Source: a virus (Duplodnaviria > Heunggongvirae > Uroviricota > Caudoviricetes). From it: 64,000 nt of DNA. Numbering within the stretch: the first letter of the stretch is position 1; each line of letters starts with the position of its first letter. This document shows positions 25,522 through 38,292 of the stretch, in pieces. The notes beneath the pieces are model-generated. The model did not search any database. It worked only from the letters and a program-made list of their open reading frames with translations, and was not told the DNA's origin. Position numbers and translations under genes: made by a program. The stretch is from IMG/VR virus record IMGVR_UViG_3300020576_001727, positions 103,062 through 167,061 of that record; one strand, written 5' to 3'.

Positions 25522-25911
25522 ATGCCAACAGTTCGTGAAATGGCTGCATATCTTTTCGTCACAGAATTCAAGGAAGACGAGAATGCAGAAATCGACAATA
25601 CCGAAGCGGCTCTAGCAAGAGCGAACAGTTTTTGCCTTGCTATCGAGAAGCTGGTTGGATGGCTTCCGACCTTGCCTGAAACGGCAACTGAAGAAGAAAT
25701 CCAATATGTCTACTATGAAGTAGGCAAGGAATTTTATGGAGTCGAAGGACCGGTCTTACGCCAGTTTTTCAAGGACTTCTATTTGTTGATGTTTGGAAGC
25801 GCGAATGGTCCCCGTCTTGGGATTTTCACCAAGCTTCTAGGTATTGACAAGACTGTTGAAAGAGTGCAGTATCGTATGAACGATCTGTTTTCAGTTCGCG
25901 GTATTTTTTGA
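25522..25911 (+). CDS. hypothetical protein
   Basis: ORF track. Confidence 0.4.
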   Translation: MPTVREMAAYLFVTEFKEDENAEIDNTEAALARANSFCLAIEKLVGWLPTLPETATEEEIQYVYYEVGKEFYGVEGPVLRQFFKDFYLLMFGSANGPRLGIFTKLLGIDKTVERVQYRMNDLFSVRGIF

Positions 25912-25918
25912 GTTTAAT

Positions 25919-25994
25919 GTCTGATAAGCTAACTTAGTAGAAGCGCCTGCCTGAAGAGCAGGAGGATACGGGGCGGAACCGTGATCAGACACCA
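25919..25994 (+). tRNA. tRNA-Phe (GAA), noncanonical T-loop
   Basis: acceptor gtctgat/atcagac, AC stem cctgc/gcagg loop ctgaaga, CCA. Confidence 0.5.
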
Positions 25995-25999
25995 TTTTT

Positions 26000-26073
26000 G
26001 GGTCATTAATTCAATGGGAGAATGTCTGTTTTACACACAGAATACGGCGGATCGTAACCGTCATGACCTACCA
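26000..26073 (+). tRNA. tRNA-Val (UAC)
   Basis: acceptor gggtcat/atgacct, D-stem attc/gaat, AC stem tctgt/acaga loop tttacac, CCA. Confidence 0.55.
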
Positions 26074-26077
26074 TTTT

Positions 26078-26151
26078 GCGGGCTTCGTATAATGAAAGTA
26101 TAATTGATTTCCACTCAATGGGTTAGGGTTTGATTCCCTAAGTCCGCGCCA
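26078..26151 (+). tRNA. tRNA-Gly (UCC)
   Basis: acceptor gcgggct/agtccgc, AC stem attga/tcaat loop tttccac, T-arm tagggtttgattcccta, CCA. Confidence 0.55.
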
Positions 26152-26159
26152 TTATATAA

Positions 26160-26234
26160 TCTCCCAAAGCATTGCTGGCGATGCGAGACTCTTGTAAGGT
26201 CGGGAATTCGGTTCGATTCCGGATGGGAGAACCA
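26160..26234 (+). tRNA. tRNA-Thr (UGU)
   Basis: perfect acceptor tctccca/tgggaga, D-stem gcat/atgc, loop cttgtaa, T-loop ttcgatt, CCA. Confidence 0.55.
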
Positions 26235-26235
26235 T

Positions 26236-26874
26236 TCAATAACTCTTATTTTCTGCATATCGCTGTCTTCTATATGCTCTACCATTACCTTTGTTTTTAG
26301 CTTTGTATGTATCGGTTTGGGCATCACAATTACAGCAAATATAGCGTAAATTATCAATTCGCCAATCATCCGAGTTGCCGTTGATATGATCTAAAACCAA
26401 CGGAATTGGTTTGTCATTCCAAGTTTCTCGGTTACATATTTTGCAATTATGCCCTTGTTGATTTTTAATGTAATATCTCGCTTTGACCAAACTGGGTAAA
26501 ATACCTGTTTTTTCGCTTTCTTCTATCCAAATATTTCTTTTATGTTCAATTGTGCATTTTTTAGAACAAAATTTGCCTTTGCTATATCTCAATTTATCTC
26601 CACAATTCATACAATGTGATTTTGTTTTTGGCGATAGTTGATATTTTGTATTATTTGACGATTTATTTCCTCTGTTTAAATTATTATATGTGGCTGAACA
26701 ACTTTGATTGCAAAATTTCTTATTTCTTTCCGCATATGAAAAAGAAACAAAACAGTGTTGACATTTAGTTGGATTTTGGTTATAATTCAAAATACGTAAT
26801 TTTTTCTGTTCTTGTTTGGTTTGGTTAGATGCCGCTGCTCCTAGTCTACCTCTTTCAGAATGTGATAACATCAT
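26236..26874 (-). CDS. HNH homing endonuclease with Zn-ribbon repeats
   Basis: HNCKICN...LVLDHINGNSDDWRIDNLRYICCNCDAQTD. Confidence 0.65.
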   Translation of the reverse strand: MMLSHSERGRLGAAASNQTKQEQKKLRILNYNQNPTKCQHCFVSFSYAERNKKFCNQSCSATYNNLNRGNKSSNNTKYQLSPKTKSHCMNCGDKLRYSKGKFCSKKCTIEHKRNIWIEESEKTGILPSLVKARYYIKNQQGHNCKICNRETWNDKPIPLVLDHINGNSDDWRIDNLRYICCNCDAQTDTYKAKNKGNGRAYRRQRYAENKSY

Positions 26875-26950
26875 TAGCCTTTCATTAGTTTCGAATATGT
26901 GTTAATGATATTTAGTGAATATAGAATTTTCGAATCGGAGAAATAGCTAA

Positions 26951-27586
26951 ATGACTTGTGCTTGTGAAACCTGCCCATTCGAAAATCCTCCTACAGACAA
27001 GATTTTTTACGAAATTCATGTGACAGTCGAAATGTCAGATGTCGAGAAGTTCAAATCTCTTTGTGCAGAAATCGATTCCAAGGCAATCATCATCGCTTTC
27101 GACAAAGACACGATTCCAAGTCAGTTCATGACTTCGGACAATATTCCAGACGATCTGCTTAAGACGTATGCTCGTATGTCAGAAGTCGTCAATTTCTTCA
27201 AATCCAAGGGTATCAACGTTCTTCGCAAAAAGATCGAAACCGTCCCTTGGCATCCGGACGCCAAGAAAAAGAAACTCTCCAAGAAACAATATTTCGAAAC
27301 CCATTTTGGTATCGAGTTGGCTTCCCAAGCCGAAAAGGAATTGCTGAAAAAGGAAATTCCCATTCACTGGTCGCGCAATGCGTTCAAGAAATTGGAAGAT
27401 GGCAAATTCATCCAAATGGGCACTCTTCGATTGGCAGAGTGTGGCGCAACGTATTTTCCTTTGAAAGCGCATTACAAGCGATTGATCACAGAACTTGGCT
27501 TTTGTATCAAAAAAGAAATTACCGAATTTTGTCTCTATGATTCGAATTTGGACCTTGACAAAGAATGGATGAAGAGATATGATTGA
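26951..27586 (+). CDS. hypothetical protein
   Basis: ORF track. Confidence 0.4.
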   Translation: MTCACETCPFENPPTDKIFYEIHVTVEMSDVEKFKSLCAEIDSKAIIIAFDKDTIPSQFMTSDNIPDDLLKTYARMSEVVNFFKSKGINVLRKKIETVPWHPDAKKKKLSKKQYFETHFGIELASQAEKELLKKEIPIHWSRNAFKKLEDGKFIQMGTLRLAECGATYFPLKAHYKRLITELGFCIKKEITEFCLYDSNLDLDKEWMKRYD

Positions 27587-27932
27587 CAAAATTATATTAC
27601 CCAATCTCACAGACCGAAATGGCAGAAAATATAGCCAAGAAGAGTTGGAAAAACAGCCAAAATCTGTCTATGGTTCATTGGATGCACGCGATCCTAGAGA
27701 TTTGGATACGATTAGTCATAGAATTGACAATTTAAGAGTCGAGAATGGTAATTATGTTGGAACCTTCCATTTTCTGGAAACTCCATTGGGTAAAATCGCG
27801 AAATCTTTGGTTGATTCCAAGGTGGAATTACAGACAAATATAATCGGTCTTGGAAAATTGACCAAAACAGAAGATGGATATTTGGTCGAAGATTTCACAC
27901 TTATAGGGATTAATTTGACTTATGACAATTGA
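27579..27932 (+). CDS. hypothetical protein
   Basis: ORF track. Confidence 0.4.
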   Translation: MIDKIILPNLTDRNGRKYSQEELEKQPKSVYGSLDARDPRDLDTISHRIDNLRVENGNYVGTFHFLETPLGKIAKSLVDSKVELQTNIIGLGKLTKTEDGYLVEDFTLIGINLTYDN

Positions 27933-28182
27933 TATCAAGAATGCCGTCAAAGACGGAAAGAGAGTTCGATTCGCCTATTATTTCGACGGTGATCTTTGGT
28001 ATCAGACAGAAGATAAGGAACTTTTTCCGGTTCCAATCGCTGATATCGGAAACGCAACTTTCCTGAATGAAGACAAGGCAATTCTGTTCATGCGATATAT
28101 GCGCAAGTGGAACAAATCCTTGGCTGACTTGAACCGGAAGAGACGGGCTTTGAACGAGTATGGCCAAAATTCTATCGTATGA
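27922..28182 (+). CDS. hypothetical protein
   Basis: ORF track. Confidence 0.35.
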   Translation: MTIDIKNAVKDGKRVRFAYYFDGDLWYQTEDKELFPVPIADIGNATFLNEDKAILFMRYMRKWNKSLADLNRKRRALNEYGQNSIV

Positions 28183-28193
28183 GGAAGTGAAAG

Positions 28194-28448
28194 ATGGCAA
28201 GATTTAACAGTGAAGATTATTCGACTCATGCCTTGATGGCAGAATTGAATCAGTATCTTGATATTATTGACGAAAAACCCGTTTCCTTTAGTAAAGATGA
28301 TATTGCTTTGGCTAAAAAGGTGAGAATGCAAATTCAAACCATGTCTTTCGCCAAGCTTTGCGGTATGTTGGGATTCTTTCAATCACTTTTCCATTACCAT
28401 AAGGATTTTAAGGGAAAGCAGATTTTTCATCACGATTGGGATAACTAG
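28194..28448 (+). CDS. hypothetical protein
   Basis: ORF track. Confidence 0.35.
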   Translation: MARFNSEDYSTHALMAELNQYLDIIDEKPVSFSKDDIALAKKVRMQIQTMSFAKLCGMLGFFQSLFHYHKDFKGKQIFHHDWDN

Positions 28449-28505
28449 TTGACAATCCCTAGAATCATGCTATGTTAAGGCAAGATCGAAACAGGAGATT
28501 TTGTC

Positions 28506-28883
28506 ATGGCTTATGTGTCGAAGGAAACCAAGGCGGCTGTTATGGTTGCTCTTGCTGCAACCGGCGCTAAGAAGGAAGGTTTTTCTTGGACGGTCGGCGT
28601 TCGCGACCACATGACCTTGCAAGTCAAGATTTGGAAGTATCCGACTTGGTTCAAGCTGAATCAGAAGTGGAGCGAATACGACTCCGAATATGGAATTGAT
28701 CTGAACACGTATCATCCTCATATGTATTTCGATGATACGCCGGAAGGGCAGAAGTCGCTTGAATGGATTAAGAAGTTCATCGCGGCAATGAACACTGGCA
28801 ATTGGGACAAGTCGGACGTGATGACTGATTATTTCAATGTTGGGTTTTTCGTGTCATTAAGGTTGTTTCCTAATAAGAAATGA
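28506..28883 (+). CDS. hypothetical protein
   Basis: ORF track; promoter TTGACA at 28449. Confidence 0.4.
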   Translation: MAYVSKETKAAVMVALAATGAKKEGFSWTVGVRDHMTLQVKIWKYPTWFKLNQKWSEYDSEYGIDLNTYHPHMYFDDTPEGQKSLEWIKKFIAAMNTGNWDKSDVMTDYFNVGFFVSLRLFPNKK

Positions 28884-29498
28884 TTTACAATTTTCGTTAT
28901 GAAAACGAGATAATATGTTTGCGGCGACCGATTTATCACAATATTTACATTTAATTTTGGGTTTCGGTCTCCCTTTTTGTTTTGTGCTAGAAGCAATTTT
29001 GATTTTTTCGATAGTTTCTGGCGAATGTGTCTTTCCATAAAATGGATTTTTTTCACCTATACATTTACCTTTTCTGTTTTGTGATATTAGTAATTTAGAT
29101 TCTTCTGTGTGGGGCTTTCTTTTTATGCCTAATTTGGAGAGACTCATATTTCTTCTGGTTTTTTCTGAAAAAGGTTTTCTCTTTCTGCCGATATATGAAA
29201 TGGATAATTCTTTTTTTAATTGTTCGTATTGACGTGCCGTAATTTTAATTTTATTTTTACGCATAGTAAATTGCCAAGCCGCATATGCAAGTTTTTCTTT
29301 ATATGGAGCATCGACCATTCTTATCAGAAGCAGATGGCATAAAAAGTGTTGACGGGCAGATAAACGTATGATATTATTGTCATCGTTAGAACCTCCCATG
29401 CATTTTGGAATAATATGATGATTTTCAACATATATGTCATTTTGGGGTTTTGAAATTATATCAAAATACCATTTGGTATATTTGTTATCTTTAAACAT
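28857..29498 (-). CDS. HNH homing endonuclease with NUMOD3 repeats
   Basis: NHHIIPKCMGGSNDDNNIIRL; repeated GRKRKPFSEKT/GIKRKPHTEES. Confidence 0.65.
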   Translation of the reverse strand: MFKDNKYTKWYFDIISKPQNDIYVENHHIIPKCMGGSNDDNNIIRLSARQHFLCHLLLIRMVDAPYKEKLAYAAWQFTMRKNKIKITARQYEQLKKELSISYIGRKRKPFSEKTRRNMSLSKLGIKRKPHTEESKLLISQNRKGKCIGEKNPFYGKTHSPETIEKIKIASSTKQKGRPKPKIKCKYCDKSVAANILSRFHNENCKSFLIRKQP

Positions 29499-29554
29499 TA
29501 GGGAATCCTCCTAATGAGTATATATGAAATTTTAATGTTGGAAGGTATGTGAAA

Positions 29555-29650
29555 ATGGCACATGAACGAAAAAATCGCCCGCGAAAGGGAAGACGTAAGG
29601 TCGGCTCTGCCAAGCGTCTTGCTCGACGCAAGCGCAAACAGAGAAAGTGA
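29555..29650 (+). CDS. 31-aa highly basic peptide (MAHERKNRPRKGRRKVGSAKRLARRKRKQRK)
   Basis: RBS ggaagg 6 nt upstream; 17 of 31 residues R/K. Confidence 0.35.
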   Translation: MAHERKNRPRKGRRKVGSAKRLARRKRKQRK

Positions 29651-29694
29651 CGAATCGATTCATATCGTTACATATTTCGACTAAATAAGAAACA

Positions 29695-29775
29695 TGCCTC
29701 TGTATCAGTCCCGGCTTCGAACCGGTCGTTAAAGCTGTAATGGAGTATGGGGGTTCGAATCCCTTCAGGGGCACC
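29695..29775 (+). tRNA. noncanonical tRNA-like, anticodon-like loop UCG (Arg), canonical acceptor/T-arm, apparent D-arm missing/rearranged
   Basis: acceptor gcctctg/caggggc, hairpin ccgg-cttcgaa-ccgg, T-arm gggggttcgaatccctt, CCA; paralog at 29995. Confidence 0.4.
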
Positions 29776-29780
29776 AATTT

Positions 29781-29855
29781 TGCTTTGTAAGCATTGACGG
29801 TGATGCAGGAGTTTCGTAAACTTCAGAGGATGGTTCGATCCCGTCACAAAGCACC
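29781..29855 (+). tRNA. tRNA-Thr (CGU)
   Basis: acceptor gctttgt/acaaagc, D-stem gcat/atgc, AC stem ggagt/acttc loop ttcgtaa, CCA. Confidence 0.5.
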
Positions 29856-29912
29856 AAATTTTTCTTGACAACGTTCAAAAACACATATATACTAAACCAG
29901 AATTAGAAATTT

Positions 29913-29987
29913 GCGGGTATAACTCAAAGGTAGAGTGTCAGCCTTCCAAGCTGTATGTTGTCGGTTCGAGTCCGATTGCCCGCTCCA
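29913..29987 (+). tRNA. tRNA-Gly (UCC), second copy
   Basis: acceptor gcgggta/tgcccgc, D-stem actc/gagt, loop cttccaa, T-loop ttcgagt, CCA. Confidence 0.5.
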
Positions 29988-29994
29988 GTTTAAT

Positions 29995-30075
29995 GCTTCC
30001 GTATCGCCACCGGCTTCTACCCGGTCGTTAACAGCGTAATGGAGTATGGGGGTTCGAGTCCCTCCGGGAGCACCA
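29995..30075 (+). tRNA. noncanonical tRNA-like, anticodon-like loop UCU (Arg), paralog of 29695
   Basis: acceptor gcttccg/cgggagc covaries with paralog; hairpin accgg-cttctac-ccggt. Confidence 0.4.
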
Positions 30076-30084
30076 GAATTTATA

Positions 30085-30159
30085 GGAATAGTGCCGGAAC
30101 GGTAACGGGACGATCTGCAAAATCGTTTTTAACGGGTTCGACTCCCGTCTATTCCTCCA
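30085..30159 (+). tRNA. tRNA-Cys (GCA)
   Basis: perfect acceptor ggaatag/ctattcc, AC stem acgat/atcgt loop ctgcaaa, T-loop ttcgact, CCA. Confidence 0.55.
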
Positions 30160-30171
30160 AAATTAGAAATT

Positions 30172-30244
30172 GGCTTTGTGGCGGAATTGGCAACGCGGGC
30201 ACCTGCAAAGTGACCAGATTCAGGTTCAAGTCCTGACAAAGCCT
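30172..30244 (+). tRNA. tRNA-like, loop ctgcaaa (GCA) with weak AC stem; no encoded CCA
   Basis: acceptor ggctttg/caaagcc, T-arm tcaggttcaagtcctga. Confidence 0.4.
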
Positions 30245-30263
30245 CAAATTATTTAAGTTTAAT

Positions 30264-30337
30264 ACCCGTATGGTGTAATGGTAGCACAAGAGCCTCCAAA
30301 ACTTTTAGTCTCGATTCGATTTCGGGTGCGGGTGCCA
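30264..30337 (+). tRNA. tRNA-Trp (CCA)
   Basis: acceptor acccgta/tgcgggt, D-arm gtgtaatggtagcac, loop ctccaaa, CCA. Confidence 0.5.
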
Positions 30338-30343
30338 ATAAAT

Positions 30344-30432
30344 GGAAAGTAAAGCAGCCGGGGTGCTGCCGGGGCTTGCTAAGCCTTGGGTGCTGAAATA
30401 TGCATGGGAGTCGGAATCTCTGCTTTCCGCCA
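30344..30432 (+). tRNA. type II tRNA-Ser (GCU)
   Basis: 89 nt; acceptor ggaaagt/gctttcc; AC loop ttgctaa; variable arm hairpin; CCA; T-loop tcggaat noncanonical. Confidence 0.5.
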
Positions 30433-30440
30433 GATTTAAT

Positions 30441-30529
30441 GGAAAATGAACCGGACAGGCGAGCCGGAACCGCCTTGAAAGCGGATTGTCCCGAAAGGGA
30501 TGGATTTCGAGTATGCCCGTCTTCCGCCA
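30441..30529 (+). tRNA. type II tRNA-Ser (UGA)
   Basis: 89 nt; acceptor ggaaaat/gtcttcc (A6-U67 covaries with G6-C67 of paralogs); AC ccgc-cttgaaa-gcgg; variable arm tccc-gaaa-ggga. Confidence 0.45.
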
Positions 30530-30534
30530 TTCAT

Positions 30535-30622
30535 GGAAAGTAAACCGGTTGGGAACCGGACACGTTTCGAAAACGTTGTGACCCGGTAACGGGTTATGGA
30601 TCGATACCATTGCTTTCCTCCA
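30535..30622 (+). tRNA. type II tRNA-Ser (CGA)
   Basis: 88 nt; acceptor ggaaagt/gctttcc; AC loop ttcgaaa; variable arm acccg-gtaa-cgggt; CCA. Confidence 0.5.
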
Positions 30623-30627
30623 TTCAT

Positions 30628-30698
30628 GCCCATGTAGTATAAAGGTATTACGGCGCTTTGGTAAAGCGTAAAATCAGGATCGTTCCCTGACTTGGGCT
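30628..30698 (+). tRNA. tRNA-Thr (GGU), no encoded CCA, one acceptor mismatch
   Basis: D-stem gta/tac, AC stem gcgct/agcgt loop ttggtaa, T-arm tcagg-atcgttc-cctga. Confidence 0.4.
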
Positions 30699-30702
30699 CA
30701 TT

Positions 30703-30749
30703 GAAATCCTAGAATCCATAAATAATAGTAAACTGGATTCTAGGATTTC
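30703..30749 (+). promoter_or_regulatory. 16-bp perfect stem hairpin (gaaatcctagaatcca / tggattctaggatttc, 15-nt loop) immediately upstream of GIY-YIG gene
   Basis: read directly. Confidence 0.55.
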
Positions 30750-30754
30750 CTTAT

Positions 30755-31357
30755 TTGCTATACACGATCTATAAAATTACGAATAATATTAACGGTAAAA
30801 TTTATATTGGTAAACATCAAACTAAAAATTTAGATGATGGGTATTTTGGTTCTGGTAAAAATCTAAAACGTGCGATATCGAAATACGGTATAGAGAACTT
30901 TAACAAAGAAATTCTTTATGTATTCGACAACGAGTCGGATATGAATGTTAAGGAACGTGAATTAGTAACCGAAGAATTTTGTAAACGTCTAGATACCTAC
31001 AATATTTGTGAAGGTGGTAAAGGCGGATTTGGTTATATAAATTCGATTGTATCAAATGAAGATAAATCTAGGTTTGGAAAATTTGGCGCGCAAAAATATG
31101 TCGAACGTTTAAAATCAGACAAAAATTTTGCAGATTTGAGAATTTCTTCTTTCAAAGAAAGTATTCAAAAGTTAAGAGACTCTGGTTGGAAATCGTCCGA
31201 ATCTCATATGAAGTTGATGACTGAAAAAGCAGCCGAAAAAACACGTAACATGATATGGATTACAGACGGTGTTGCTAATAAAAAAATACTAAAAACTAAT
31301 AAAATTCCTCCAAATTTTTATAGAGGAAGAATTGTAAATAAACGTCAATCGTCATGA
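30755..31357 (+). CDS. GIY-YIG homing endonuclease (TTG start)
   Basis: [22 protein letters not shown]...YFGSG...NxE. Confidence 0.65.
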
Positions 31358-31361
31358 AAGG

Positions 31362-31577
31362 ATGACTATGCGTAACGATTTGATTATAATTGGACTTGCA
31401 TTCTTTGCGGTGTTTGTATTTCCAGTTCCCGCTATGATTTCGGCGGCAAGCACTGTAATGGTTTTGCTAGGAATTGGTATCGTCCTTCTAGGAGGATATG
31501 CGGCTTGGACTTCTGGAATGAAGATTTTCAAGAAGTTTCTGAACAATGATGTTGATAACAATGGAGAAAATGGATGA
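31362..31577 (+). CDS. small two-TM membrane protein
   Basis: two hydrophobic helices; overlaps start of SPFH gene. Confidence 0.45.
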   Translation: MTMRNDLIIIGLAFFAVFVFPVPAMISAASTVMVLLGIGIVLLGGYAAWTSGMKIFKKFLNNDVDNNGENG

Positions 31578-32446
31578 TTCGTAAGATTATGATTGCTGGA
31601 ATGCTCGGAATTTCCTTGCTTTCCTTGGCTGGTTGCGGAAAAGTTCCGGCTGGTAACGTGGGTGTCAAGGTCTATCTGCTAGGTGGCAGCAAGGGTGTTG
31701 ACAGTGAAGTTCTAACTCCCGGGCGCTATTTCATCGGCTGGAATGAAGACCTTTATTTGTTCCCTACGTTCACTCAAAACTATGTTTGGACCAAGGATTC
31801 AAGACCCGGTTCCGAGACAGACGAATCATTTACTTTCCAAACAAAGGAAGGCATGGCGGTAACAGCCGATATCGGTATCAGCTATGCAATTCGTCCAGAA
31901 AGTGTCAGCACGATCTTTCAGAAGTATCGTCGCGGGGTGGATGAAATCACAGATACTTTCTTGCGCAACATGGTAAGAGACGCCTTGGTTGTCGAAGCCT
32001 CGAAACTTCCAATCGAGTCGGTTTATGGTGCTGGTAAGGAAGATTTGATCAAGTCGGTTGAAAATCGCGTCAAATCGCAAGTCAATGAACTTGGTATCAA
32101 CATTGAGCGCATTTATTGGATTAATAGTCTTGAACTTCCTCCGGAAGTCGTCGGATTGATCAATGCTAAGATTGGTGCAACTCAAAAGACTCAACAGCGC
32201 CAGAATGAAATCGAGCAAGTCAAGGCTGAAGCTCAAAAGGCAATTGAAGAAGCGCGCGGTCTTGCTGAATCGGTCAAGCTAAGAGCGCAAGCCGAAGCAG
32301 AAGCCAACCGGATCATTAATCAGTCTTTGACCGATGACTTGGTTCGTTATAAGGCTTTGGAAAAATGGGATGGCGTATTGCCTCGTATGACGGGCGGCGG
32401 TGCAGTTCCTTTCATTGATGTAGAAAAAACCATTTCCAATCAATGA
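31574..32446 (+). CDS. SPFH/band-7 (prohibitin-like) domain lipoprotein
   Basis: lipobox LLSLAGCG; band-7 like core; C-terminal coiled-coil AQAEAEANRI. Confidence 0.55.
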   Translation: MIRKIMIAGMLGISLLSLAGCGKVPAGNVGVKVYLLGGSKGVDSEVLTPGRYFIGWNEDLYLFPTFTQNYVWTKDSRPGSETDESFTFQTKEGMAVTADIGISYAIRPESVSTIFQKYRRGVDEITDTFLRNMVRDALVVEASKLPIESVYGAGKEDLIKSVENRVKSQVNELGINIERIYWINSLELPPEVVGLINAKIGATQKTQQRQNEIEQVKAEAQKAIEEARGLAESVKLRAQAEAEANRIINQSLTDDLVRYKALEKWDGVLPRMTGGGAVPFIDVEKTISNQ

Positions 32447-32481
32447 ATTAAGAAAAAAATTAGTCGAATCGAAAAAAGTGG

Positions 32482-32510
32482 TTGACATTCGTTTCCGGTT
32501 CGACTAAATT
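32482..32510 (+). promoter_or_regulatory. promoter TTGACA-N17-TAAATT
   Basis: read directly. Confidence 0.5.
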
Positions 32511-32641
32511 AAGAGCATAGAGATTGAAGGGAAGCCGGTGGGTTTCCAGTTCTTTGAAAATTGAAGCGAAAGAAAAGAGGCGTGTCCCGCGCGTGAGTCC
32601 GGTTTACCGGACAGGGAATGAGTTAATCATCCAAAGATTTT

Positions 32642-33196
32642 TTGTTGACAACATCAAATGTCACATATATAGTAACACAGAATATGAAACTCTGCGAAAC
32701 TTGTCATAATCAACATGATGGTAATTTTGGTTCCGGAAGATTTTGTTGCAAAAAATGCGCTTGTTCATATAGCACCAAAAATTCTAGACATGAGATTAAT
32801 CAGAAGGTCAAAAATGCTTTAATTGGTCGAAAAGCTTCGATTGAAACGATAGACAAGATGAAAGAATCTTGGAAATCGAGAAAATCAAGCAATTCCTATT
32901 ATAGGCGTTCGCAAACGAATATTGAAGATATTTGTGTAGTCGATTCTATCTATACTACTAAATATGTTAAAGAAAGATTATTTCGCGACAATCTAAAAAA
33001 ATATGAATGTGAAGAATGTGGATTATATGAGTGGCGAAATAAGCCAATAACATTACAACTTCATCACAGAAATGGTAAAAATAAAGATCATAGATTAGAA
33101 AATCTGCAAATCTTATGTCCAATGTGTCATTCTCAAACGGACAATTATGCAGGAAGAAATAGAAGGCTTCGTATTTTAACTGGAAAGATGCATTGA
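32642..33196 (+). CDS. HNH homing endonuclease
   Basis: LQLHHRNGKNKDHRLENLQILCPMCH; N-terminal Zn ribbons; own promoter TTGACA-N17-TATAGT upstream. Confidence 0.65.
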   Translation: MLTTSNVTYIVTQNMKLCETCHNQHDGNFGSGRFCCKKCACSYSTKNSRHEINQKVKNALIGRKASIETIDKMKESWKSRKSSNSYYRRSQTNIEDICVVDSIYTTKYVKERLFRDNLKKYECEECGLYEWRNKPITLQLHHRNGKNKDHRLENLQILCPMCHSQTDNYAGRNRRLRILTGKMH

Positions 33197-33241
33197 CTAC
33201 GAATCAATGAGGTAAAGGTTCGAATCCTTTCGAAGTCGCCA
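33195..33241 (+). pseudogene. tRNA 3' fragment / minihelix (acceptor + T-arm + CCA, no D or anticodon arm) abutting HNH stop codon
   Basis: gactacg..aaaggttcgaatccttt cgaagtc g cca. Confidence 0.4.
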
Positions 33242-33244
33242 ATA

Positions 33245-33319
33245 CAGGGTGTAAGAGATAAGATCATCGGTCGGTTTTGGAAACCGGCTAAGCTGGAGCG
33301 TTACCAGCCATCCTGACCA
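33245..33319 (+). tRNA. tRNA-Pro (UGG), weak D-stem, noncanonical T-loop
   Basis: acceptor cagggtg/catcctg, AC stem gtcggt/accggc loop tttggaa, CCA. Confidence 0.45.
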
Positions 33320-33401
33320 ATTCTCTCTTAAGTGTTGGCGCACGAAAGAGAGATAAGCAAAGCCCGAAAAAGCAAATCACGCCAATGATTTGTGAGTAAC
33401 G

Positions 33402-33470
33402 AGTCATATCGTCTAGGGCGGAAGGACGCCCCTGTTGAAGGGGGAAACGTGGGTTCGAATCCCATTATGT
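33402..33470 (+). tRNA. tRNA-like (D-arm cgtc/gacg, T-arm gtgggttcgaatcccat) whose acceptor halves do not pair; possible pseudo-tRNA
   Basis: hand fold. Confidence 0.3.
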
Positions 33471-33862
33471 TTAGCTTTGCTTTAAAATTTCGGATTAAGT
33501 TCCCGTCAACGCACACTAGCGACGTTAACTTTGGGTGCCGTGTTTTGTTGCTTCCTCCCGTTAAGAAAGCAATCCTTTTGATTATTTTCGGCGAAAAATA
33601 ATCGGTCATGCGTGAGTGTCTACAATTCTTACGCCGTATGGTAGCACGGATGCACCATGTCAATGCCAGTCAGACATACCCAAAAATGTGATATAATTGG
33701 AAAAAAATATCAATCTGGCAACCTATTAAATGCTTGATTTGACTATAAAATCAGGTATAATACAGTAAACAGGAACGATGAATCAGATAGTTTTCGTCCT
33801 ATCGTTCAAAGCGTCGTAAAGTCCGCCCGGTCTGTTCAAAACGGTGGCGGGTTAGAATTTAT

Positions 33863-33940
33863 TCCTCAGAGGCGAGCAAGGTGCACGCGGCGGTCTGTTA
33901 AACCGAGTTAAGGCAGGTTCGATTCCTGCTTGGGGAGCCA
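33863..33940 (+). tRNA. tRNA-Asn (GUU), U1-A72
   Basis: acceptor tcctcag/ttgggga with wobbles, AC loop ctgttaa, T-arm gcaggttcgattcctgc, CCA. Confidence 0.45.
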
Positions 33941-34138
33941 AAATAAGTTATTGACAAGCTTGAAGAAATTCGCTAGGATATGTCAATAATAGGAACCGGA
34001 AGTGGGGTATCAAATCCTCGATCCCGCCCAACAAATTCAAGCATGGCCAACGCTATGTGATGATCGGATCGCTACCGACGAATTTGTATTATCGGGATTT
34101 GGTGTAAGAAAGCACGCCGGACGAATTTTTTGAATAAT

Positions 34139-34212
34139 GCGGGTATCGTATAACGGAATTATGCGACGTTGCCAACGTTGAGAAGTCGGATCGTCCCCGA
34201 CTACCCGCACCA
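34139..34212 (+). tRNA. tRNA-Gly (GCC)
   Basis: perfect acceptor gcgggta/tacccgc, AC stem cgacg/cgttg loop ttgccaa, CCA. Confidence 0.55.
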
Positions 34213-34275
34213 AGAATGAGCCTTTGGAAACGATCACTGTGCTTTGACACAAATCCCCAAGGGACGTGAATAAAT

Positions 34276-34350
34276 GGCGCATTAGTTTAGTGGCTAGAAT
34301 CCTCGGCTTTCAACCGGGAGGAAGGGGATCGAAACCCCTATGCGCTACCA
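34276..34350 (+). tRNA. tRNA-Glu (UUC)
   Basis: acceptor ggcgcat/atgcgct, loop ctttcaa, T-arm aggggatcgaaacccct, CCA. Confidence 0.55.
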
Positions 34351-34377
34351 AATTGGAATAGAAATATTCCTACGTTT

Positions 34378-34452
34378 TGCGGGGTAGAGAAGCAGCATCT
34401 CGCCACTCTCATAAAGTGGAAATCATCGGTGCGAGTCCGGTCCCCGCAACCA
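34378..34452 (+). tRNA. tRNA with CAU anticodon (Met/fMet/Ile2)
   Basis: D-stem gaga/tctc, AC stem ccact/agtgg loop ctcataa, CCA. Confidence 0.55.
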
Positions 34453-34504
34453 ATAATACGTTATAAGGTAAAGTTCGGATGGCTGACTTAAGCAGCGTAA
34501 AACC

Positions 34505-34918
34505 TTAAGAATTTCGTAAATTATAATGTAGTTTACGATGACAGTTTGAACAAAGAATATCACATTTTTCGATTTCTTTCTTGATACGATCAAGCGATAT
34601 TCCGTTTCTAGATAATCTGGCAATTGACTGTTCTTTTTGATTAGGATCACGATGATGAAAATCAAGTGCTGCAATGTGATTTTCTGGACATTGACTGCAT
34701 GATTTATCAGAAAGATATTGCAATACATATTCTCTGTTACGATTGTATATGTTTTTGACGTTTTTGCGAACACGTTTGCGTTCATCAGAATTATTTTTAT
34801 ATTTTTCTCTATTATGAGTTCGAATACATTCTTTACACCAAGAATTAAGTTTTCCGTTTGTCTTGGGTGAAAATTGATTTTCCTCTTTTAGAGATTGACA
34901 TTTAGAACAAATTTTCAT
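34505..34918 (-). CDS. HNH homing endonuclease
   Basis: CSQCPENHIAALDFHHRDPNQKE...CSNCHRKLH. Confidence 0.65.
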   Translation of the reverse strand: MKICSKCQSLKEENQFSPKTNGKLNSWCKECIRTHNREKYKNNSDERKRVRKNVKNIYNRNREYVLQYLSDKSCSQCPENHIAALDFHHRDPNQKEQSIARLSRNGISLDRIKKEIEKCDILCSNCHRKLHYNLRNS

Positions 34919-34962
34919 AGATTTAGATATCCTTTTAATTTCTAAATCTATTTATGATTATT

Positions 34963-35040
34963 GCCCGACTGACGAAAATGGAAGCCGTGTCAGACTTAGA
35001 ATCTGAATTTTTGGGGGTTCGACTCCCCCGTTGGGCACCA
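34963..35040 (+). tRNA. tRNA, anticodon UAG (Leu-like, short variable arm)
   Basis: acceptor gcccgac/gttgggc, AC stem tcaga/tctga loop cttagaa, T-arm gggggttcgactccccc, CCA. Confidence 0.5.
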
Positions 35041-35047
35041 AATTAAT

Positions 35048-35122
35048 GCCGGTATAGTGCTAATGGTAACACGCCTGTTTGTGGAGCAGGAATCAAAGGA
35101 TCGATACCTTTTGCCGGTGCCA
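35048..35122 (+). tRNA. tRNA-His (GUG)
   Basis: acceptor gccggta/tgccggt, AC stem cctgt/gcagg loop ttgtgga, CCA. Confidence 0.5.
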
Positions 35123-35343
35123 TTTAGACTTTAGGGCGCGCGGAATGCCGTTGCTTCCCTAATGTCTAGACCCAAAGATTATGGGCGATTGGGTCTATAA
35201 ATATAAGGCTTGTTGAAAGACAAGAATTCGTCGCGGTCATGCTCTTTGAGTTCATTCCGTAAAGGTTGGACACTCCTTTCAAAAGTGCTATCGAGGGTTT
35301 AGGTGATTTTCCCGCGTAAGCAAAAAATCATACCAGTTTTAAT

Positions 35344-35417
35344 GGTCCCTTGATGTAATGGTAGCATACCACTCTGTCTAAGTGAGAGCAGCGGATCGTA
35401 ACCGCTAGGGATCGCCA
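35344..35417 (+). tRNA. tRNA-Asp (GUC)
   Basis: acceptor ggtccct/agggatc, D-stem atgt/gcat, loop ctgtcta, CCA. Confidence 0.45.
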
Positions 35418-35560
35418 ATGAGAACGCACAGCCCGAATGCCTAATTATGGTCAAGACTGTGGTTCAATAGTCCGGTGGCTACCTTTGCCCGTAAGGGTGT
35501 GGAACCAACCACTTAATAGTTAGACGACTGAACGGTGTCGGCAAACCCGGAAGTTGGGTG

Positions 35561-35585
35561 GAAATCCCAACAACTTTTTAAAAAG
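35561..35585 (+). terminator. rho-independent terminator gttggg-tggaaat-cccaac + T-run
   Basis: read directly. Confidence 0.5.
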
Positions 35586-35649
35586 TCTCTTGACAATCTT
35601 TCGGTCAAGAGATAATATATACATAACATGAACGAAAGGAATTAATCAG

Positions 35650-35745
35650 ATGGCGTGGGTAAAAGAAACGGTTCCTTATACTCCCGAATCTTTTGGAATG
35701 GCAATAGCTATTGCCATTTTGATGATCGAATATCTGATTTTCTAG
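35650..35745 (+). CDS. 31-aa hydrophobic peptide (MAWVKETVPYTPESFGMAIAIAILMIEYLIF)
   Basis: TTGACA-N17-TAATAT promoter within 9-bp inverted repeat upstream; RBS aagga. Confidence 0.35.
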   Translation: MAWVKETVPYTPESFGMAIAIAILMIEYLIF

Positions 35746-35748
35746 TGT

Positions 35749-35824
35749 CAGAAACAAGCCTTGGTAGGCTAACTTGTCTCATAAGCAAGCCAAATTGTGA
35801 GTTCGATTCTCACTTCCGCAACCA
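35749..35824 (+). tRNA. tRNA-like with CAU anticodon arm and canonical T-arm, acceptor not pairing as drawn
   Basis: D-arm agcc-ttggta-ggct, AC cttgt-ctcataa-gcaag, T gtgagttcgattctcac, ...cca. Confidence 0.35.
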
Positions 35825-35973
35825 AAGTGGGTGACGCTGCGAAATTGCGAAAGTAACAGCGAAAATTCCCGAATAGGCAAAAACCGAAATCCTAAGCGCG
35901 CTCAAGATGGTCGGTTTGGTTGACAAGCGGGGTTAAGTTTCTTAGCGGGGGCTATGTCAACATTTGAATTCAT

Positions 35974-36049
35974 GGCAGTATGGGGTAGCTGGTGCGCCCG
36001 TCCGTCTCATAAGCGGAAAGAACCTGATCGTAACAGGTTACTGCTACCA
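35974..36049 (+). tRNA. tRNA with CAU anticodon (third copy)
   Basis: acceptor ggcagta/tactgct, D-stem gggt/gccc, AC tccgt-ctcataa-gcgga, CCA. Confidence 0.55.
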
Positions 36050-36058
36050 ATTAATTTA

Positions 36059-36105
36059 GTGCCAAACGGACACGTTGAAAGAACTCTGTTTGGTTTATTT
36101 TATGG
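36059..36105 (+). terminator. hairpin ccaaac...gtttgg followed by tttatttt
   Basis: read directly. Confidence 0.4.
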
Positions 36106-36194
36106 GGAGTGCAAATAAGGGTTGCTGGTGCAGCCGCCGAGTTGTAGCCTCGGTCCTTAATGGCAGGAGATTCGATTTCGTCCATTCCCCACCA
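36104..36194 (+). tRNA. type II tRNA-Tyr (GUA)
   Basis: 88 nt, acceptor ggggagt/attcccc, AC ccgag-ttgtagc-ctcgg, variable arm, CCA. Confidence 0.45.
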
Positions 36195-36202
36195 ATAAAT
36201 AT

Positions 36203-36276
36203 GTCCTCATAGCTTAGTGGCAAAGCGGGCGCTTGATAGGCGTTTGACCTTAGTTCGATTCTAGGTGGGGACACCA
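36203..36276 (+). tRNA. tRNA-Ile (GAU)
   Basis: acceptor gtcctca/tggggac, D-stem gctt/aagc, loop ttgatag, CCA. Confidence 0.5.
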
Positions 36277-36291
36277 ATTCAAGATTGCTGA

Positions 36292-36981
36292 TTGATGTAT
36301 TTTACCATCTATAAAATAACGAATAAAATCAATGGTAAAACTTATATCGGAAAGCATCAAACCGAAAATTTAAACGATGGTTACTTCGGTTCCGGTAATG
36401 GAATAAAATACGCCATTGCTAAATATGGCAAGGATAACTTTGTCAAAGAAATTCTTCATGTTTTTGACAATGAATCCGATATGAACGCTAAAGAAGCTGA
36501 ATTAGTTACCGAAGAATTTTGTAAACGTTTGGATACTTATAACATCATGACCGGTGGTTATGGAGATTTTAATTTCATAACTCCTGAAGAAAGAACAAAA
36601 AATGCTAAAAAGGGTATATCTTGTTTGAATAAAAAATTGGATTCGGACCCAATGTTCCGACAACAATTTTATAAAAAACGAACTGAAGCAATCAGAAATG
36701 TCGATTGGTCATCAATCAATTTGATTGGAAGAACTCATACAAAAATATCCAAAGATAAAATGAGGGAAAAGGCTCTTGGTAGAAAACGTTCCGAATTGTC
36801 TATAAAATTTCAGAAAATAAATTCATTAGGTGAAAAAAATTCTCAATATGGGACTCGTTGGTCTTGGATTACAGATGGCCAAACGAACAAAAAAGTGCCA
36901 TATTTAGAGGATAAGGATATTCCAGAAGGCTGGAAAAGAGGAAGAAGTCGGACAGGACAACTAGTGGAGTCGTTCGCTTGA
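36292..36981 (+). CDS. GIY-YIG homing endonuclease
   Basis: YFTIYKITNKINGKTYIGKHQT; paralog of 30755 gene. Confidence 0.65.
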   Translation: MMYFTIYKITNKINGKTYIGKHQTENLNDGYFGSGNGIKYAIAKYGKDNFVKEILHVFDNESDMNAKEAELVTEEFCKRLDTYNIMTGGYGDFNFITPEERTKNAKKGISCLNKKLDSDPMFRQQFYKKRTEAIRNVDWSSINLIGRTHTKISKDKMREKALGRKRSELSIKFQKINSLGEKNSQYGTRWSWITDGQTNKKVPYLEDKDIPEGWKRGRSRTGQLVESFA

Positions 36982-37023
36982 CATGCGAAAGATGGTAGGC
37001 GCGAAACCTACGTTCGACACCAT
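36969..37023 (+). pseudogene. tRNA 3'-fragment-like element (T-arm-like hairpin + acceptor-like + ACCA) overlapping GIY-YIG stop
   Basis: gtagg-cgcgaaa-cctac gttcgac a cca. Confidence 0.3.
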
Positions 37024-37030
37024 TTAGAAG

Positions 37031-37059
37031 TTGACATGGAGAGTAAAATTAGGTATATT
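37031..37059 (+). promoter_or_regulatory. promoter TTGACA-N17-TATATT
   Basis: read directly. Confidence 0.5.
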
Positions 37060-37169
37060 GAATCATCGAAATCTATGAAGGTTGGTGATATGATTTGCCA
37101 GATTGGTTTTTATGTATCTGTCGCTTTTATTATATGTATCATTTTGGGAATTATGTGAAAGGATTTGAA

Positions 37170-37310
37170 ATGGCTTGGTATTTGTATGGTATTGGCGCTG
37201 CTTTGATATCAATTTCGATTGGTTTGGCGGCTGGTTTCGTTCCTTTTCTTGCTGCATTAGGATTTTCGGCACTTGTCGCCGGTTTTCTTCATGCGATTAT
37301 AAATAGTTAA
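37170..37310 (+). CDS. 46-aa small membrane protein
   Basis: RBS aaagga; single long hydrophobic stretch. Confidence 0.4.
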   Translation: MAWYLYGIGAALISISIGLAAGFVPFLAALGFSALVAGFLHAIINS

Positions 37311-37313
37311 TTT

Positions 37314-37388
37314 GGGCTGTTGGTGATAATGGGAGCATCCCGCACTTGCAATGCGGGGGAGACGGATCGTAACCGTCACAGTCCACCA
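37314..37388 (+). tRNA. tRNA-Ala (UGC)
   Basis: acceptor gggctgt/acagtcc (G3-U70), AC ccgca-cttgcaa-tgcgg, CCA. Confidence 0.55.
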
Positions 37389-37395
37389 AGTTTAA

Positions 37396-37468
37396 TGCGG
37401 GGTAGTAGAAGTTAGAACGCCGGTCTTTGAAACCGGAGATACTGGTTCAAGTCCAGTCCGCGCAGCCA
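37396..37468 (+). tRNA. tRNA-Gln (UUG), U1-A72
   Basis: AC ccggt-ctttgaa-accgg, T-arm actggttcaagtccagt, CCA. Confidence 0.5.
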
Positions 37469-37479
37469 ATTTTAACAAT

Positions 37480-37570
37480 GGTTCCATAGCATAAAGGTAA
37501 TGCGCCGAGCTTATACCTCGTTACTCCTGATTAGAGGGTGATACAGGTTCGAATCCTGTTGGAACTACCA
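37480..37570 (+). tRNA. type II-length tRNA (88 nt), anticodon candidate UAU; identity uncertain
   Basis: acceptor ggttcca/tggaact, D-stem gcat/atgc, 21-nt variable arm, T-arm acaggttcgaatcctgt, CCA then T9 run. Confidence 0.45.
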
Positions 37571-37585
37571 ATTTTTTTTTATTTT

Positions 37586-37978
37586 ATGTTGTTGATAGAA
37601 GAATATATTAAAAAATCAATAGAAGATCGCCAAAAACATCTAGATTTACAATCTGAATGTGATGAAAGGGGCGGATTTTCTTCTTATTATAAAGGATTAA
37701 TGGCATATTATCTTGACACAACAATTCCTTCCGGAAATCGTATTTTAGTTTGTCATGCTTGCCATAATTCAAAATGTAGTAATCCAAAACATTTATATTT
37801 TGGAACACCAAAAGAAAATGTAGCAGATATGAAATCTGTAGGTAATTTTAAAAATGCGTGGCAAGCTAAAGTTGATAAATATGGTCATGATGAAGCACTT
37901 AAAATGGTCCGAGAACATTTGAATAAAGTAAGATATCTAGGAACCATAGCTTCGCCAGTAACTAAAAAAAGAAAATAA
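37586..37978 (+). CDS. HNH (His-Me finger) endonuclease
   Basis: ILVCHACHNSKCSNPKHLYFGTPKEN. Confidence 0.55.
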   Translation: MLLIEEYIKKSIEDRQKHLDLQSECDERGGFSSYYKGLMAYYLDTTIPSGNRILVCHACHNSKCSNPKHLYFGTPKENVADMKSVGNFKNAWQAKVDKYGHDEALKMVREHLNKVRYLGTIASPVTKKRK

Positions 37979-37985
37979 ATTTTAT

Positions 37986-38060
37986 TCCCCGTTCGTCTAA
38001 CGGTAGGACCACACGCTTTGAACGTGTCCAATGGAGGTTCGAATCCTTCGCGGGGAGCCA
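37986..38060 (+). tRNA. tRNA-Gln (UUG) second copy
   Basis: D-arm gtctaacggtaggac, AC acacg-ctttgaa-cgtgt, CCA. Confidence 0.5.
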
Positions 38061-38068
38061 AATCATGT

Positions 38069-38142
38069 TTCCGAGTCGTCTAGTGGTAGGACGTTTCTCT
38101 CTGAAAGAAAAGACGGTTGTTCGAATCAACCCTTGGAAGCCA
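38069..38142 (+). tRNA. tRNA-Gln (CUG)
   Basis: acceptor ttccgag/cttggaa, AC tttct-ctctgaa-agaaa, T-arm ggttgttcgaatcaacc, CCA. Confidence 0.5.
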
Positions 38143-38292
38143 AATTTAGAAAGAATTTGTAATGAACGAAATCAATTTGACAGGTAATTGGCAAAAAACC
38201 CCTTGGTATTTCACTCTGTTTGGCTTTTCTGCCAAACGTCGCAAAATTCATCACTCCAAAAATCCAGAACTTTATGTATGGGAATATCAGTA

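Follow-up and report, generated by a model that had tools for sequence, protein, structure and literature searches.

SPFH proteins (prohibitin, stomatin, flotillin, HflK/C) have lately been shown to build closed membrane cages, and to our knowledge all structurally characterised SPFH proteins oligomerise into a ring or cage, the wall of which, in the solved complexes, is formed by a long coiled-coil helix. Phages carry such genes as well, in a cassette whose record labels range over 'membrane protein + lipoprotein', 'QmcA', 'SPFH domain protein' and, wrongly, 'serine protease'. A search of the available literature library found no functional study of the phage SPFH cassette and returned annotation remarks and speculation only: a possible hfl-like role was raised for Bruynoghevirus (PMC8540360), the MbpV and MbpS proteins were speculated to aid Sec-dependent export of the Tgl lysin (PMC7150955), and in the paper on phage GIB1 (2026) the reason for an SPFH gene in phages 'remains unclear' (PMC13239085). 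Considered here is one such cassette, in which a gene for a small, predicted hairpin membrane protein overlaps a gene for an SPFH lipoprotein. It lies within a 64,000-nucleotide (nt) stretch of viral DNA, hereafter the window (positions 103,062 to 167,061 of IMG/VR record IMGVR_UViG_3300020576_001727).

The cassette of the window is a divergent, ordinary member of a known and very widespread phage cassette: PHROG 200 and PHROG 1130 are both matched, by adjacent genes. The two genes are best explained as a self-contained, horizontally mobile phage accessory cassette. We regard it as moderately probable that their products form an SPFH scaffold, made by the phage, which lies against the periplasmic side of the host inner membrane and is assembled around the hairpin partner.

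In the list of open reading frames (ORFs) of the window, the upstream member of the pair has 71 amino acids (aa; 31362..31577, + strand) and the downstream member 290 aa (31574..32446, +). They share four bases, ATGA at 31574-31577, in which the SPFH start codon lies over the stop codon of the small gene, and a GGAG at 31563-31566, inside the small gene, precedes the SPFH ATG by 7 nt. As read from the bases of this junction (31563..31577, +), the GGAG and the ATGA overlap have the geometry of classical translational coupling. Overlaps of 4, 1, 8, 11 or 14 nt between the two genes recur in most related loci. An initial annotation, made from the letters of the DNA alone, had described a small protein with two transmembrane (TM) segments, translationally coupled to a lipoprotein of SPFH type; as to the coupled pair it was accurate, both ORFs being present with the overlap that it had read.

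The small gene probably needs a 6-nt correction at its start. A Shine-Dalgarno-like AGGA (31359-31362, +) overlaps the ATG at 31362 and stands 5 nt before a second ATG at 31368, which is also the start in the public gene call for an identical small protein (P0121, 69 aa). Because of this spacing and this call, a gene of 69 aa (31368..31577) is more likely than the 71-aa version. The stop codon of the GIY-YIG ORF upstream ends at 31357, and the nearest promoter-like site 5' of the pair lies before that ORF, at 30687-30729; beyond the SPFH stop codon there are promoter-like sites and weak terminator-like ones (all of these are consensus matches only). Just 3' of that stop, an 8-bp inverted repeat, TAGTCGAA ... 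TTCGACTA (32461-32468 and 32499-32506, +), brackets a promoter-like TTGACA-17-TAAATT (32482-32510). This arrangement (32461..32510, +) could serve the transcription unit that follows as an operator-like or regulatory element.

The SPFH lipoprotein gene (31574..32446, +; 290 aa) is a member of PHROG 200 (E=1.3e-80). In the N-terminus of its product, MIRKIMIAGMLGISLLSLAGC, a basic n-region and then a hydrophobic core lead up to the lipobox L-A-G-C; as MIRK-IMIAGMLGISLLS-LAGC this N-terminus fits the lipoprotein pattern [LVI][ASTVI][GAS]C. On this sequence pattern a lipoprotein signal peptide with lipobox L18-A19-G20-C21 is assigned to 31574..31636 (+), so placed that the mature protein would begin at a lipidated Cys21 with Gly at +2. 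Of 47 aligned homologs at least 90% keep Cys21, a conservation that together with the consensus lipobox after n-region and core bears out the LAGC reading of the initial annotation. The Pfam family Band_7 (PF01145) is matched over residues 23-218 (E=4.5e-24; 85.9 bits against a gathering cut-off of 23.6), and homologs number 2980 at E<=1e-10.

An AlphaFold2 monomer model of the protein (mean predicted local distance difference test score, pLDDT, 82.6) has three parts. The SPFH or Band 7 domain (31640..32134, +; residues 23-187, pLDDT mostly 85-97) starts two residues past Cys21, and stomatin SPFH domains score 0.75-0.80 against it in Foldseek (target-normalised TM-score). An Ala/Glu-rich coiled-coil region follows (32141..32365, +), made up of a 62-residue helix (190-251) and a short helix (254-264), and aligns to that of QmcA, HflC and prohibitin-2 by Foldseek and profile search. 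Last comes a motif, W265-D-G-x-L-P ... P279-F280 (32366..32413, +), recognised by its conservation in the 47-homolog alignment, where W265, G267 and P270 are invariant and L269, G274, P279 and F280 are at least 90% conserved; in the model residues 271-290 have pLDDT below 50. This C-terminal motif is a candidate for oligomer 'cap' contacts.

The predicted structure carries the SPFH fold that the initial annotation had proposed and had made its test. In Foldseek against the PDB, prohibitin, HflK/C, erlin, stomatin, QmcA and flotillin were all matched with a probability of 1.00. Human prohibitin (8rrh, E=1.8e-13) heads the list, followed by HflK/C (7vhq, 7wi3, 9cz2), erlin (9vvg), stomatin (9z7u) and QmcA-YbbJ (8z5g), and these top matches are to whole protomers of cages with solved structures. 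Sequence matches are far sparser: phmmer with the SPFH protein found no PDB sequence, and a 47-sequence profile found QmcA (E=3.8e-7), HflC (E=4e-4), both across the last part of the SPFH domain and the coiled-coil region, the prohibitin-2 coiled coil, and nothing further in the PDB. Sequence kinship to characterised SPFH proteins is thus remote, and the phage proteins are a distinct SPFH subfamily.

The small hairpin membrane protein (31368..31577, +; 69 aa, or 71 aa from the ATG at 31362) matches PHROG 1130 (E=4e-9). Two hydrophobic segments are predicted in it, and its AlphaFold2 model (pLDDT 72) has a short helical segment at 2-23 and a long helix at 26-65, in agreement with the two TM segments claimed at the outset. 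The break at residues 24-25 coincides with a conserved Pro/Ser turn of the form P-x-[LM]-[IV]-S-A-x-x. Alignments of relatives give the family a common layout: a short basic N-terminus, a first TM segment ending in Gly, the turn P-x-[LFM]-[IVF]-S-A-x-x, a second TM segment with a conserved Gly, and a Lys/Arg-rich tail; the P, S and G are invariant. Among family members, mean K+R and D+E are 1.17 and 0.11 in the N-terminal tail, 0.43 and 1.11 in the turn, and 3.61 and 1.87 in the C-terminal tail. Because this distribution fits the positive-inside rule, it predicts a topology with both ends cytoplasmic (N-in/C-in) and the conserved turn in the periplasm.

Pairing of the two genes is conserved. 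A test of the upstream ORF that was independent of any motif, and asked for 40-110 aa and two or more TM segments in the adjacent 5' position, found such an ORF before 61 of 80 SPFH genes in related IMG/VR loci, as against 4 of 386 other large ORFs of the same loci; Fisher's test gives p=3e-54, a value that is indicative only, since the loci are related. An upstream TM ORF with the turn motif was present in 62 of the 80 loci, a count that is partly circular in that a regular expression for the loop chose the sequences, and some small TM ORF in about 73. Neither the TM control nor the look-ups that began with the partner are circular. In these look-ups three of the four proteins retrieved with the partner profile lay directly upstream of a Band_7 gene; the fourth precedes a gene for an NMT1-like periplasmic protein. 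A small membrane ORF stands directly upstream, mostly with an overlap of 1-14 nt, in ORM_20, OLIVR5, Burkholderia vB_E253 and a Klebsiella lambdoid prophage, and likewise in Pseudomonas phage TL, Caulobacter CcrSwift and Staphylococcus phage K; the partner is also upstream in two marine alphaproteobacterial prophages, in P2-like and P1-like E. coli prophages and in N4-like phages.

In one 348-aa ORF (P0075; L106 2501..3547) hairpin, signal peptide, lipobox and SPFH domain are fused in frame. The fusion occurs on one contig only (Logan SRR17161168_9799), and may be genuine, a Rosetta-stone fusion, or else the result of a frameshift in sequencing. An all-against-all BLAST of the ORFs flanking the SPFH gene in the 80 loci found no third conserved gene (protease, NfeD or lysis gene), and because of this the unit is taken to be two genes; the only recurrent flanking 'clusters' were antisense shadow ORFs inside the SPFH gene itself.

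It might be held that the small ORF is spurious, or that it adjoins the SPFH gene by chance and without functional link to it. The ORF is short and hydrophobic; its product matches no family in Pfam or NCBIfam, and a word-indexed search with the small protein alone gave two matches, itself and one relative. The family is visible only through neighbourhood mining and profiles. A profile search found 828 representative clusters at E<=1e-3, almost uniformly short (52-118 aa among the 150 clusters listed) and most of them matched over nearly their whole length. These clusters, the enrichment of 61 of 80 over 4 of 386, the adjacency to Band_7 genes in the partner-first look-ups and the fusion effectively refute chance adjacency, against which the PHROG 1130 match and the conserved coupling geometry also speak; it is scarcely credible.

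Where the SPFH lipoprotein resides bears directly on what the pair may do. A cytoplasmic-membrane location, on the periplasmic face and not in the outer membrane, is suggested because of TM-anchored homologs, the topology of the fusion, versions with Asp at +2, and homologs whose hosts have no outer membrane. Five homologs (P0105, P0074, P0069, P0050 and P0037; 61-63% identical) have no Cys and carry instead a cytoplasmic extension and a plain TM anchor; therefore these proteins cannot leave the inner membrane. In the two contigs examined, those of P0105 and P0074, the hairpin partner is kept upstream, and lipid-anchored and TM-anchored forms are interchangeable. The fusion would be topologically coherent only with a cytoplasmic hairpin C-terminus and an exported SPFH domain. 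In the temperate versions from E. coli and Klebsiella the +2 residue is Asp (C-D-R-V-E-P-G), which is the classical Lol-avoidance, or inner-membrane retention, signal in Enterobacteria. Finally, homologs in phages of Gram-positive bacteria and in haloarchaeal viruses are TM-anchored, and those hosts are without an outer membrane.

From these elements the following course is proposed. The hairpin would insert with both ends in the cytoplasm and its turn, P-x-L-I/V-S-A, facing the periplasm, and the SPFH protein would be made in fixed proportion to it via translational coupling. The SPFH protein would then be exported, lipid-modified at Cys21 and anchored in the outer leaflet, its SPFH domain held flat on the membrane because the domain starts two residues past the anchor. 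Oligomerisation into a ring or cage would proceed through the 62-residue coiled-coil helix and the conserved C-terminal motif, elements that are compatible with assembly in the monomer model, and the cage would enclose a membrane patch with the hairpin inside, as NfeD is in QmcA and FtsH in HflK/C. The cassette would be expressed with replication and nucleotide-metabolism (early/middle) genes and would therefore act during the productive cycle.

Several observations weigh against such an inner-membrane scaffold. The +2 residue is Gly in the window protein and Ser in most relatives, residues that in E. coli usually direct sorting to the outer membrane, a rule that may not be the host's; a Gly or a Tyr there can also lead to retention of model lipoproteins in E. 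coli. Nor is the pairing universal, about 7 of the 80 loci having no small TM ORF. In Kolesnikvirus (Salmonella phage SE5, L095 480..1567; Erwinia phage Fifi318, L098 372..1570) a soluble helical 69-aa protein is encoded upstream instead and Asn follows the lipobox Cys of the SPFH lipoprotein, at +2; a change of partner, and perhaps of resident membrane too, may have taken place in this lineage. In KNP2 a gene intervenes between partner and SPFH gene, and a short contig (L105 452..670) has the partner without an SPFH gene. Oligomerisation and the contact between hairpin and SPFH protein are themselves putative, the structure models being of monomers. The pair of Staphylococcus Kayvirus adjoins the endolysin gene, and PM0222, a Pasteurella multocida prophage SPFH protein likened to the present one by its SPFH label only, was reported in outer-membrane vesicles, where it is a TLR1/2 agonist (PMC9872710).

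Some of these points would suit an outer-membrane lipoprotein that masks or alters receptors at the cell surface, like T5 Llp or Cor, with the small protein co-transcribed and physically separate: the Gly or Ser at +2, the vesicle-borne PM0222, and the Kolesnikvirus versions that have Asn at +2 and no TM partner. The close TM-anchored versions are bound to the inner membrane, with the partner still present in both of those examined; an in-frame fusion exists, enterobacterial temperate versions carry Asp at +2, and there are homologs in viruses of Gram-positive bacteria and archaea, whose hosts have no outer membrane. Characterised SPFH proteins, moreover, are membrane-attached scaffolds, and we know of none that is a receptor blocker. 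Receptor masking from the outer membrane is accordingly quite unlikely, and location of the cassette at the inner membrane is preferred.

Three side observations concern the hairpin position. The 72-aa partner in L105 (452..670) is identical to that in L104 (2501..3576), and the same downstream genes follow in L105; the SPFH gene may have been lost from L105 by natural deletion, or the assembly may be at fault. In L103 (2501..3631), a large contig, an NMT1-like periplasmic binding-type protein of about 307 aa follows the hairpin, with no Band_7 gene called within the 2.5-kb downstream flank. In L039 (2042..2968), also a large contig, the usual place of the hairpin next to the SPFH gene is taken by a 308-aa ORF whose N-terminus resembles a signal peptide; by size and position, the only grounds for it, this ORF would be NMT1-like.

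Genomic context provides the main clue to when the cassette acts. Replication, nucleotide-metabolism or early genes are its neighbours in 17 of the 18 contexts examined, Kayvirus being the exception. These include thymidylate synthase and a nucleotide pyrophosphohydrolase in ORM_20, dCMP hydroxymethylase in OLIVR5, DNA polymerase A and a single-stranded DNA-binding protein at a further locus, and, on contigs found from the partner, primase-helicase, polymerase and 5'-3' exonuclease in one case and SNF2 helicase, ThyX and ribonucleotide reductase in another. The P2-like prophage locus is in the P2 early operon, flanked by cox on one side and by the gene for the replication endonuclease on the other; the lambdoid prophage locus is in the recombination and antirepressor region, and that of phage TL in the early region.

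The Kayvirus arrangement, in which MbpV/MbpS lie directly downstream of the endolysin gene, is among the grounds for taking the cassette as a lysis-timing device. The small protein would then be like a holin, pinholin or antiholin, corralled by the SPFH cage to delay or synchronise permeabilisation. It does have features of class II holins (about 70 aa, two TM helices, N-in/C-in by charge, a basic C-terminal tail), and MbpV was noted by its authors as resembling holins (PMC7150955). When the small protein and 45 relatives were compared with Pfam, matches to unrelated TM families were scattered and marginal, gave no assignment, and included two holin families, matched by a few members at E=0.004-0.05; no holin match was significant. 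Set against this are the 17 of 18 contexts with replication, nucleotide or early neighbours rather than endolysin or late genes, and the window itself, where no lysis genes adjoin the cassette and the neighbours are a GIY-YIG ORF, tRNAs and an HNH ORF. The best-conserved part of the small protein, too, is the predicted periplasmic turn and not the TM faces expected of a pore former. A lysis-timing device is improbable on this evidence.

Superinfection exclusion, anti-defence and protease modulation, as put forward in the initial annotation, are reasonable hypotheses for what the scaffold does. PADLOC-DB 2.0 yielded 0 families for either protein at E<=0.01, so that by this comparison neither is a known defence component, and the PHROG annotations of both families carry no superinfection-exclusion label. 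Among possible outputs, the favoured one is that the scaffold protects the inner membrane of the infected cell, whether by shutting out the DNA of superinfecting phages or by resisting premature permeabilisation; it is a tentative choice, possible rather than probable. Modulation of FtsH or another protease is ranked after it, then lysis timing, and then outer-membrane receptor masking. A role in lysogeny or lysis seems less likely than membrane protection. A wider conjecture, which we hold to be doubtful, is that of a minimal, self-sufficient viral SPFH nanocage, composed of a lipid-anchored protomer and a hairpin 'cargo', that fences off patches of the cytoplasmic membrane early in infection, in bacterial and archaeal viruses alike. 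Were it true, such a nanocage could block entry of competing-phage DNA or neutralise membrane-depolarising abortive-infection effectors, and would amount to a general, so far unrecognised viral strategy of counter-measure or exclusion by membrane compartmentalisation.

The window is that of a phage, as had been supposed: it holds a tRNA array, homing-endonuclease ORFs, and PHROG matches to a DNA polymerase, a UvsX-like recombinase and a DnaB-like helicase. Ochrobactrum phage ORM_20 (60%) and Agrobacterium phage OLIVR5 (53%) encode the proteins closest to its SPFH protein, and because of this the host is probably an alphaproteobacterium. Megablast of the pair against 50,697 phage records gave no match; judged by this comparison the phage appears new at the DNA level, with relatives at the protein level only. 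An identical SPFH protein stands on a record from a 170,409-bp contig. The pair lies inside the tRNA block, upstream of the replication genes of the window. The G+C contents of its two genes are 0.40 and 0.46, those of the core replication genes 0.41-0.42 and that of the flanking endonuclease ORFs 0.31. Because its G+C is near that of the core genes, unlike that of the flanking endonuclease ORFs, the cassette has the look of a resident element and the endonucleases that of invaders.

The tRNA block comprises 31 tRNA genes (21317..41238, all on the + strand; ARAGORN), with duplicates for Gln-ttg (three copies), Cys, Gly-tcc, Pro and Met (two each). Endonuclease-like ORFs stand among them: NUMOD3/HNH at 28857..29498 (-), GIY-YIG at 30755..31357 (+), HNH at 32642..33196 (+) and HNH-like at 34505..34918 (-). 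A tRNA with an abnormal two-base 'tg' anticodon (33402..33473, +; ARAGORN, and Rfam tRNA at 38 bits) and two weak tRNA-like Rfam matches not called by ARAGORN (25919..25991 and 29696..29773; 36.9 and 29.3 bits) may be degenerate or unusual tRNAs. The 3' end of the array is the site of a GOLLD RNA of full length (41103..41562, +; Rfam RF02032, 214.6 bits with a gathering threshold of 150, E=2.6e-59), in which a tRNA-Gln(ttg) is embedded at 41168..41238.

Beyond this phage, SPFH homologs occur in 731 of the 50,697 phage records, in phages of Proteobacteria, Firmicutes and Caulobacter, in Lak megaphages and in haloarchaeal viruses, and the family is commonest in strictly virulent phages (Kayvirus, Herelleviridae, phiCbK-like, N4-like). 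Related SPFH genes are found in 689 of 5,426 complete E. coli genomes. In P1-like plasmid prophages (RCS47 and others; NZ_CP033848.1, L094 2400..3632) the cassette lies at an accessory locus between dmt with tRNAs and ban (dnaB); classical P1 (OP279344.1) is without it and matches the first 155 query bases only.

What is new in the present comparison is the near-constant hairpin partner, the swap between lipid and TM anchors, and the occasional fusion, and together these lead to a testable model of an inner-membrane cage with cargo. Tractable carriers are at hand in P1-like RCS47, P2-like and Stx prophages, Pseudomonas phage TL, Staphylococcus phage K and Agrobacterium phage OLIVR5. Should the cassette prove to act on superinfection, on the evasion of defences or on the timing of lysis, this would be of consequence for the phage therapy candidates in which it is found, such as Kayvirus and the PAK_P-like phages named in PMC8540360.

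The initial annotation had likened the pair to HflK/C and YqiK-type membrane-scaffold modules. The fold and the probable cage architecture survive, and membership of those families does not: the partner has no NfeD domain, the locus has one SPFH gene, and the HflK equivalog of NCBIfam (TIGR01933) scores 20.3 bits against a cut-off of 159.4, a sub-threshold match on which HflK/C membership is rejected. No second SPFH gene was found at the window locus, nor a second SPFH cluster among the neighbours in the 80 loci.

With the HflK/HflC-FtsH complex (7vhq, 7wi3, 9cz2) the window protein shares the succession of SPFH domain, long coiled-coil helix and C-terminal segment, the N-terminal anchor with a periplasmic SPFH part, and a weak sequence match to HflC. 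It differs in that a single SPFH gene replaces the K/C heteropair, a lipid anchor the TM helix and a dedicated 69-aa hairpin, absent from HflK/C, accompanies the scaffold, while nothing points to FtsH, the cargo of HflK/C, as cargo of the phage scaffold. These likenesses and differences also decide how far the cassette can be taken as an HflK/C mimic, whose SPFH cage captures or displaces host FtsH, or another inner-membrane quality-control protease, and so alters the stability of CII-like proteins, LpxC or sigma-32. Lambda CIII targets FtsH and HflK/C affects lambda lysogeny; HflK/C-FtsH is among the top fold matches in the same extracytoplasmic orientation, HflC is one of the few proteins in the PDB matched at the sequence level, and the Bruynoghevirus remark cited above raised the idea. 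Yet the protein falls outside the HflK/HflC family and lacks the heteropair, the N-terminal TM helices of HflK/C are part of the assembly whereas the window protein would have a lipid anchor only, and the dedicated, conserved hairpin partner is left unexplained. Because most carriers are virulent phages, a general hfl-like role in lysogeny control is rejected, a point made also in PMC8540360. We judge capture of FtsH unlikely and hold to the scaffold built around its own partner.

The prohibitin PHB1/PHB2 and erlin1/2 cages (8rrh, 9o9z, 9vvg) are the best Foldseek matches (E=1.8e-13 to 1e-11) and resemble the window protein in their N-terminal anchor and in an SPFH domain that faces a non-cytosolic compartment. 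Unlike it, they are eukaryotic heteromers (14-17% identity) with cargo of their own, the m-AAA protease and factors of endoplasmic-reticulum-associated degradation, and with no gene for a small hairpin partner.

Similar in organisation are the SPFH-NfeD operons (QmcA-YbbJ, 8z5g; YqiK-YqiJ; archaeal stomatin-STOPP), in which two genes co-express an SPFH protein and a small membrane protein that sits inside the cage; QmcA is also the best PDB match at the sequence level. The window partner is without an NfeD/OB-fold or protease domain, and among 46 members of its family there is no Pfam match to NfeD. Gene order and the 4-nt overlap, moreover, belong to the phage cassette. QmcA and YqiK face the cytoplasm, whereas the window protein is predicted to be exported; because signal peptide and lipobox predict export, its orientation would be that of HflK/C, prohibitin and erlin and not that of YqiK/QmcA.

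Among phages, MbpV-MbpS of Kayvirus (Staphylococcus phage K/MSA6) are a comparable pair: the SPFH protein is homologous (24% identity, E=8e-15, tblastn), and a small TM protein with a basic tail is encoded directly upstream with a 1-nt overlap. As differences, MbpS has a TM anchor in place of the lipoprotein one, MbpV is 102 aa long with one TM helix only, and the pair is next to lysK. Annotated relatives include those of ORM_20, OLIVR5 ('QmcA'), the phiP27 and Stx2 phages ('serine protease'), RCS47, P88 and TL. The 'serine protease' label of the Stx2, phiP27 and Klebsiella prophage homologs is rejected, there being no protease domain, and domain content gives no support to the 'transposase fusion protein' of some records. 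The T4 early exclusion proteins Imm and Sp are alike by analogy of function, being small, directed to the inner membrane or periplasm, early, accessory and patchy in distribution, and no kinship to them is claimed. By its profile matches, then, the true family of the pair is the phage cassette PHROG 1130 plus PHROG 200, bioinformatic clusters labelled 'membrane protein' and 'lipoprotein', of which the two proteins of the window are direct members.

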